Positions 21,500 through 21,814 of a stretch of DNA of 64,000 bases are shown one piece after another. Origin of the DNA: Escherichia coli O127:H6 str. E2348/69. Its GTDB lineage: Bacteria > Pseudomonadota > Gammaproteobacteria > Enterobacterales > Enterobacteriaceae. The position numbers and the translations under genes were made by a program. The stretch is taken from assembly GCF_000026545.1 (NCBI RefSeq), contig NC_011601.1; one strand, 5' to 3'. The first letter of the stretch is position 1. The number at the start of each line of letters is the position of its first letter. Under the pieces are notes generated by a model, which was not told where the DNA came from, did no database searches, and saw nothing but the letters and a program-made list of their open reading frames with translations.

Positions 21500-21814
21500 A
21501 TGCAATTTACGGTATACCGCAGTCGCGGCAGGAACGCCGCGTTTCCCTTTGTTATTGATGTTACCAGCGACATTATTGGTGAGATTAATCGCCGTATCGT
21601 TATTCCATTAACACCTATTGAACGATTTAGCCGTATTCGCCCACCAGAACGGCTTAACCCAATCCTTTTACTGGTAGACGGCAAAGAATATGTGCTCATG
21701 ACGCATGAGACTGCAACTGTTCCAGTTAACGCGCTGGGAACGAAATTTTGCGATGCCAGCGCGCACCGAACGTTGATTAAAGGAGCATTAGATTTTATGC
21801 TCGACGGGATTTAA
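21500..21814 (+). CDS. ccdB: CcdB-family toxin (gyrase-poison fold)
   Basis: 104 aa [14 protein letters not shown]...[21 protein letters not shown]...VPV...DGI; recognisable similarity to F-plasmid CcdB (MQFKVY...FVDVQSDII...RRMVIPL...WGI) recalled from memory. Confidence 0.8.

Follow-up and report, generated by a model that had tools for sequence, protein, structure and literature searches.

Positions 21264-21814 of the window (the whole stretch of 64,000 nucleotides of Escherichia coli O127:H6 str. E2348/69 DNA that was analyzed) very probably constitute the chromosomal ccdAB (ccdO157) islet, a type II toxin-antitoxin system whose CcdB protein is a dimeric gyrase poison with a C-terminal tail that is normal for its family, and in which the aspartate standing in the place of the tryptophan of F plasmid CcdB marks an Enterobacterales chromosomal clade and reflects neither a lesion nor a change of target. 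The feature is real, both the system and the family-typical residue are already known, and in this sense the locus is an ordinary one.

Results

The ccdAB genes form an islet between folA and apaH

The region 21180-21840 contains two co-directional open reading frames flanked by folA, which ends at 21178, and by the convergent apaH gene (Table 1). The ccdB gene starts 2 nt past the ccdA stop codon, the antitoxin gene lying directly upstream of the toxin gene in a single operon, and the product of the first gene is named 'type II toxin-antitoxin system CcdA family antitoxin' in RefSeq. At the right edge, the alignment with E. coli K-12 MG1655 showed that homology picks up again at TTTAAGACGC, window position 21810, and therefore the stop codon of ccdB (21812-21814) overlaps that of apaH (21811-21813, minus strand), of whose three bases one is shared with the Ile104 codon of ccdB (its third position) and two with the ccdB stop codon (positions 1 and 2). 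Published accounts of the ccdO157 system likewise place it, as a genomic islet, between folA and apaH. The 3' end of apaH (21811-21840, minus strand) shows a difference of its own, the ApaH protein having 282 aa here versus 280 aa in K-12 (ends ...KDLGEAAAS), and a 6-nt indel in apaH, together with substitutions relative to K-12, directly adjoins the islet junction.

Table 1. Features of the ccdAB region, in coordinates of the window
Feature	Position	Strand	Evidence
ccdA antitoxin gene, 77 aa	21264-21497	+	ORF list; RefSeq; 100% identity to O157:H7 CcdA
ccdB toxin gene, 104 aa	21500-21814	+	Pfam CcdB; PDB sequence matches; AlphaFold2 model; 98% identity to O157:H7 CcdB
apaH, convergent with ccdB, right islet edge	21811-22659	-	ORF list
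ccdO157 islet, ~620 bp, in place of the 77-bp folA-apaH spacer (REP-containing) of K-12	21188-21809	.	Alignment and BLAST versus MG1655
Asp98 codon GAT, family-conserved helix Asp, equivalent to V. fischeri Asp99 / F Asn95	21791-21793	+	Alignment; role from PMC5086665 and 2025 preprint
Asp102 codon GAC, at the F Trp99 / V. fischeri Thr103 position	21803-21805	+	HMMER/MAFFT alignments
Candidate sigma-70 promoter of ccdAB: -35 CTGATA, 16-nt spacer, -10 TATACT	21205-21232	+	Consensus scan, 9/12 matches

Of 5426 complete E. coli genomes, 2025 contain the 661-bp stretch, with one copy per genome and all copies on the chromosome, and its RefSeq annotation gives a CcdA-family antitoxin and a CcdB-family protein beside apaH. 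A plasmid origin in E. coli was rejected on the finding that none of the ~2025 copies in complete genomes is located on a plasmid, whereas 4525 plasmids in PLSDB carry the F-type ccdB gene, most of them with an identity of at least 80%.

Other differences from K-12 were observed elsewhere in the window. An insertion of 5.5 kb between araC and yabI (41114-46681) carries five open reading frames whose translations resemble, by eye, a DeoR-type regulator fused to a PfkB-family sugar kinase, a DapA-like aldolase, and the TctC, TctB and TctA proteins of a tripartite tricarboxylate transporter. The setA gene (K-12 77621-78799) is absent, and ~40 nt (52932-52971) lie between the end of sgrS (Rfam SgrS, 52706-52932) and the leuD-homologous region. 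About 120 nt (29615-29733) take the place of the 1.5-kb yabP/yabQ segment of K-12 (58178-59686), and an Rfam match of 77 bits to naRNA4, a REP-derived nucleoid-associated RNA family, is found at 29630-29709.

Upstream region of ccdA and hairpins within ccdB

The candidate promoter of the ccdAB operon is located 30 nt 5' of the ccdA start, which is a fitting position, and its -10 box is overlapped by a GTATAC palindrome (21226-21231). It was the sole match of the scan in the region, but shuffled sequences gave an average of 1.5 matches, so that the promoter scan alone is weak evidence.

A direct repeat was also observed in this region, with the copy TGTATATTAGA (21182-21192) at the left edge of the islet and the copy TGTATACTAGA (21225-21235), 43 nt apart from the former, overlapping the candidate -10 box and including the GTATAC palindrome. 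The GTATAC in TGTATACTAGA resembles the operator motif for CcdA in the promoter of F ccd, and the repeat could be an operator or a scar of insertion. Within ccdB (21524-21594), three terminator-like hairpins were predicted versus 0.9 ± 1.0 in shuffled sequences; these structures are intra-coding and were taken as noise.

The toxin belongs to the CcdB family and resembles Vibrio fischeri CcdB more than F CcdB

The assignment of the second gene product to the CcdB family was based on profile, sequence and structure comparisons. The Pfam CcdB model (PF01845) matched the window protein with an E value of 7.1e-32, residues 2-103 aligning with model positions 1-101 of 101, and a search of the PDB sequences retrieved the CcdB proteins of Vibrio fischeri (E 5e-17) and of the F plasmid (E 1e-10). 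An AlphaFold2 model built from a 128-sequence alignment (pLDDT 93.7, pTM 0.85) predicted a protein of the CcdB/MazF fold, in which a beta-barrel core precedes a long C-terminal helix, here at residues 87-102. When this model was compared with the PDB by Foldseek, the top match was V. fischeri CcdB in complex with GyrA14 (4ELZ_C, TM 0.92, rmsd 1.4 Å), followed by F CcdB in complex with GyrA14 (1X75_C, TM 0.86), and MazF structures ranked far behind (E ~5e-4). The sequence and structure searches thus gave the same order, with V. fischeri CcdB ahead of F CcdB, and the C-terminal motif of CcdB proteins (the helix Asp, four residues, Gly and a hydrophobic last residue) is present as D98, G103 and I104.

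The window system is not an ortholog of the F type, because CcdB scored only 61.2 bits against the NCBIfam equivalog model NF010262, far under its cutoff of 147. The NCBIfam CcdA model matched the window CcdA with an E value of 1e-9, also under the F-type equivalog cutoff. F CcdB (1VUB/3VUB, 1X75) shares with the window toxin the family, the fold, the operon organization and the final G-I, and the two proteins are 37% identical. V. fischeri CcdB (2KMT, 3JSC, 4ELY, 4ELZ), the best match in the PDB by both sequence and fold, is encoded on a Vibrio chromosome and is ~35-40% identical to the window protein.

An aspartate occupies the position of the F CcdB tryptophan

The toxin tail had been described in an earlier note as ending in DGI rather than in the WGI of F CcdB. 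This description was confirmed, since the 104-aa open reading frame ends in D102-G103-I104 followed by TAA, and the span then assigned to the tail, 21780-21814, is right apart from an offset of at most one base from a codon boundary: the K94 codon occupies 21779-21781 and is followed by the codons for G95, A96, L97, D98, F99, M100, L101, D102, G103 and I104, the last one at 21809-21811. The by-eye pairing of the aspartate with the F tryptophan also held, because the alignments obtained with HMMER (all PDB sequences) and with MAFFT (F CcdB, 1vub/3vub) were ungapped over the last ~40 residues and paired D102 with W99, G103 with G100, and I104 with I101. A search for tryptophan anywhere in the 104 residues of the window CcdB found none, and therefore no alternative alignment can supply one, which excludes a gapped alignment with Trp at the equivalent position.

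The F-type tail, in which Trp99-Gly100-Ile101 places a tryptophan on GyrA Arg462, is hence absent from the window protein, and F CcdB carries Asn95 and Trp99 where the window CcdB has Asp98 and Asp102. In V. fischeri CcdB, as in the window protein, Trp is absent from the F-W99 position and the helix Asp is present (D99, equivalent to D98 here). The V. fischeri tail D-F-L-I-T-G-I differs from the window tail D-F-M-L-D-G-I in having Thr at the position at which Asp is found here.

Tryptophan is the exception at this position of the family

To place the substitution within the family, 1.84 billion representatives at 50% identity were searched with the window CcdB, which gave 853 matches at E <= 1e-3, and the best 150 of the 853 were taken. 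The 135 full-length sequences among them were aligned together with the window CcdB and F CcdB (137 sequences in total). These best 150 of 853 are the sequences most similar to the window CcdB (27-59% identity) and are hence a biased sample of the family; F CcdB itself is 37% identical to the window CcdB, so the sample spans comparable distances.

In this alignment, the Trp99 column contains T in 52 sequences, Q in 26, S in 16, D in 13, H in 7, N in 5, L in 4 and W in 2. Both tryptophans belong to F CcdB itself and to one Pantoea cluster, i.e., Trp is found in 1 of the 135 representatives drawn from the best 150 of 853. The neighboring positions are far more uniform in the same set (best 150 of 853 plus the window and F proteins), the F-Asn95 column being Asp in 131 of 137 sequences, the F-Gly100 column being Gly in 134 of 137, and the last residue being F, I, V or Y in 123 of 137. 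As read from these columns, the tail pattern of the family is D-x-x-x-[T/Q/S/D]-G-[F/I/V/Y], which the window tail D98-F-M-L-D102-G-I fits, and F CcdB stands out in the alignment as an outlier at both Asn95 and Trp99. Because the F tryptophan is a rare exception, Asp at this position is normal for the family and no oddity. In agreement with this observation, a 2025 preprint states that Trp99 is not conserved, and both the non-conservation of Trp99 across CcdB proteins and the alternative contact between Asp and Arg462 are already published.

Among the best 150 of 853, most of the closest full-length clusters carry Asp at the Trp position, and they come from Dickeya/Pectobacterium, Pantoea, Aeromonas, Leclercia and Providencia. 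Asp102 is, in addition, invariant across the full-length E. coli alleles that were sampled. Since the residue is common to the closest clusters of other genera and invariant in the sampled E. coli alleles, it predates the E. coli islet and is no recent lesion, and by these comparisons Asp102 has long been conserved in a CcdB clade of the Enterobacterales that is largely chromosomal.

A further regularity was observed in the same alignment (best 150 of 853 plus F). Where the helix Asp is missing and Asn is found instead, an aromatic residue follows four residues on in 3 of 4 cases, namely N...W in F CcdB and in the Pantoea cluster (P0089) and N...Y in a Citrobacter cluster (P0011), the exception being cluster P0098 with N...S. 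This pattern suggests that the helix Asp and the aromatic residue at +4 may co-vary as alternative solutions for binding Arg462.

Probable contact of the tail with gyrase

[quoted passage not shown] In the F complex, GyrA Arg462 stacks between both Trp99 side chains of the CcdB dimer, and gyrase carrying R462C, R462S or R462A is refractory to F CcdB (PMC1635281). V. fischeri CcdB has Thr103 at the Trp99 position and uses the same GyrA interface, where its Asp99, the residue that aligns with Asp98 of the window protein, hydrogen-bonds Arg462; only 3 of 10 gyrase-contacting residues are common to the F and V. fischeri toxins (PMC5086665; 2025 preprint). The reported affinities of CcdB proteins for GyrA are low-nanomolar despite their sequence differences (PMC10886550).

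By analogy with these homologous complexes, the window CcdB would act as a wedge in the open GyrA dimer and touch Arg462 through the tip of its C-terminal helix, which would trap the cleavage complex; gyrA itself lies outside the window. The window toxin may thus poison gyrase in the manner of V. fischeri CcdB, with Asp98 as the likely main partner of Arg462 and Asp102 as a possible second acidic contact, and the Asn95-Trp99 pairing of F CcdB would represent a lineage-specific alternative solution. CcdA would neutralize the toxin, and degradation of CcdA by Lon would set CcdB free. The window allele differs from the O157:H7 allele at two residues, and we infer that it is active. A more elaborate and quite unlikely proposal is that Asp98 and Asp102, one helical turn apart, form a bidentate clamp on GyrA Arg462 in the Enterobacterales chromosomal clade, as a third solution after those of F (Asn95/Trp99) and V. 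fischeri (Asp99/Thr103); such a clamp might lower the affinity and produce a reversible, tolerance-type toxin, or might allow the corresponding part of ParC to be recognized as well.

Comparison with the ccd systems of O157:H7 and of other Enterobacterales

The closest described system is ccdO157 of E. coli O157:H7, which has the same folA-apaH site, the same gene order and the same ...DFMLDGI tail (strain TT12B locus). Beyond the identities given in Table 1, both CcdB proteins fall in one cluster at 90%, and they differ at G10 (21527-21529) and E28 (21581-21583) of the window protein versus S10 and V28 in O157:H7. Residue 28 is located in the N-terminal gyrase-contact loop (23-27 in F, 27-31 in V. 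fischeri; PMC5086665).

According to PMC5543033, gyrase is the target of the O157 toxin and Lon degrades the antitoxin; the same article, summarizing Gupta 2017, gives the toxin as less toxic than F CcdB with a fivefold lower gyrase affinity; PMC10886550 calls the O157 toxin 'somewhat attenuated'. Reviews state that the chromosomal O157 system mediates no post-segregational killing. They and PMC5543033 also state that F CcdA neutralizes the O157 toxin and not vice versa. On this last point the sources are in conflict, since PMC10886550 has O157 CcdA protecting against F CcdB; three other sources, including PMC5543033, say the opposite, and this majority was followed here.

The chromosomal CcdB proteins of Dickeya/Pectobacterium (the Erwinia chrysanthemi ccd system of Saavedra De Bast et al. 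2008) have 104 aa, a tail ...IDFLIDGI and up to 59% identity to the window protein. Together with those of Pantoea, Leclercia, Providencia and Aeromonas, they are the closest non-Escherichia clusters among the best 150 of 853 and share Asp at the same position, and all of these relatives differ from the window system in genomic location and host. Protection against F CcdB has been reported for the E. chrysanthemi antitoxin, in contrast to O157 CcdA.

The ccdB gene is disrupted in many E. coli genomes

Over the final 63 nt of ccdB, 1254 of 2024 genomes match the window exactly. In an ST131 genome (strain 4224), codon 95 (21782-21784) changes from GGA to TGA, yielding a CcdB protein of 94 aa from which residues 95-104, i.e., the entire gyrase-contact tail, are gone, and 413 of the 2024 ccdB-positive complete genomes match this G95* allele over the last 63 nt. 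Other genomes carry C84* together with K94E (L005) or a 13-nt deletion that causes a frameshift (L006), and in a further genome (L002) the islet has given way to a gene with the annotation IS1096-element passenger TnpR-family protein, only the last 24 ccdB codons remaining. In a preprint on ExPEC, truncated forms were found in 19 of 52 sequence types. This large-scale independent inactivation of the toxin in complete genomes agrees with the published 'decay of ccdO157'.

Discussion

Three other explanations deserve consideration. The earlier note had raised altered gyrase affinity or an attenuated toxin, and as a description of the system this was not wrong, since the O157:H7 allele is reported to be less toxic and to bind gyrase about fivefold more weakly; as a deduction from the missing tryptophan, it fails. 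The argument that Trp is essential and its absence therefore significant breaks down because no lineage other than that of F depends on Trp, and because V. fischeri CcdB, with Thr at that position, binds the same GyrA site through the Asp99-Arg462 contact, whose Asp is conserved here as Asp98. A stronger version would make Asp102 an attenuating or degenerative substitution in a toxin that is decaying neutrally, the lost Trp being the cause of the weaker binding to gyrase. The lower toxicity and fivefold lower affinity given in PMC5543033 speak for this version, as do the reviews that call the system degenerating or neutrally evolving and the many visibly broken E. coli alleles (the G95* type in 413 of 2024 over the last 63 nt, C84* and the frameshift). 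It is nevertheless very unlikely. Within the best 150 of 853, Trp is missing from nearly the whole family sampled, so that there was probably never any Trp to lose, and Asp is common at this position to most of the closest clusters of other genera; the residue does not vary in any sampled full-length E. coli allele; V. fischeri CcdB without Trp still binds the same GyrA site (PMC5086665; 2025 preprint); and low-nanomolar affinities of CcdB for GyrA are reported despite sequence differences (PMC10886550). The earlier note had also considered a different target, which is not indicated, because Wilbaux 2007, as cited in PMC5543033, reported gyrase as what the O157 toxin acts on. That report, with the interface geometry and the conserved Asp that match the V. 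fischeri gyrase complex, makes it most improbable that the acidic tail gives the toxin a new or wider target range, whether this takes in a further type II topoisomerase (for example ParC, of topoisomerase IV) or some other protein. Topoisomerase IV is inhibited in vitro by CcdB-derived peptides (PMC10886550), and in a preprint on 352 ExPEC genomes chromosomal ccdAB was associated with non-QRDR mutations in topoisomerase IV genes, which led to the proposal of topoisomerase IV as an additional target, but this association is phylogenetically confounded according to its own authors and has no tie to residue 102.

The window allele, with G10 and E28, might alternatively encode an inactive toxin, in which case the C terminus would be without functional consequence in this strain. 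A substantial minority of the natural ccdBO157 variants is said to be inactive, Mine and colleagues having reportedly found in 2009 that this applies to ~29% of them, so the activity of the window allele is not guaranteed; decay has also been noted in the literature, and the difference at residue 28 with respect to V28 falls in the gyrase-contact loop. This explanation appears unlikely, given that the ccdB reading frame is intact, that CcdA is intact and identical to its O157:H7 counterpart and the promoter region is intact, and that just two residues separate the window toxin from the tested O157:H7 allele. Moreover, the window-type N terminus (G10, E28) is the more frequent one, with an identity of at least 99% over codons 1-34 in 1139 of 1989 genomes, and the exact window CcdB protein is found on at least 1000 contigs in public databases. 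The preferred reading is accordingly that of a chromosomal gyrase poison with a tail typical of its clade.

For E. coli O127:H6, the locus is a textbook chromosomal toxin-antitoxin islet, and its weight beyond a correct annotation is small. For the family, F CcdB is unfit to serve as the template for 'critical residues'.
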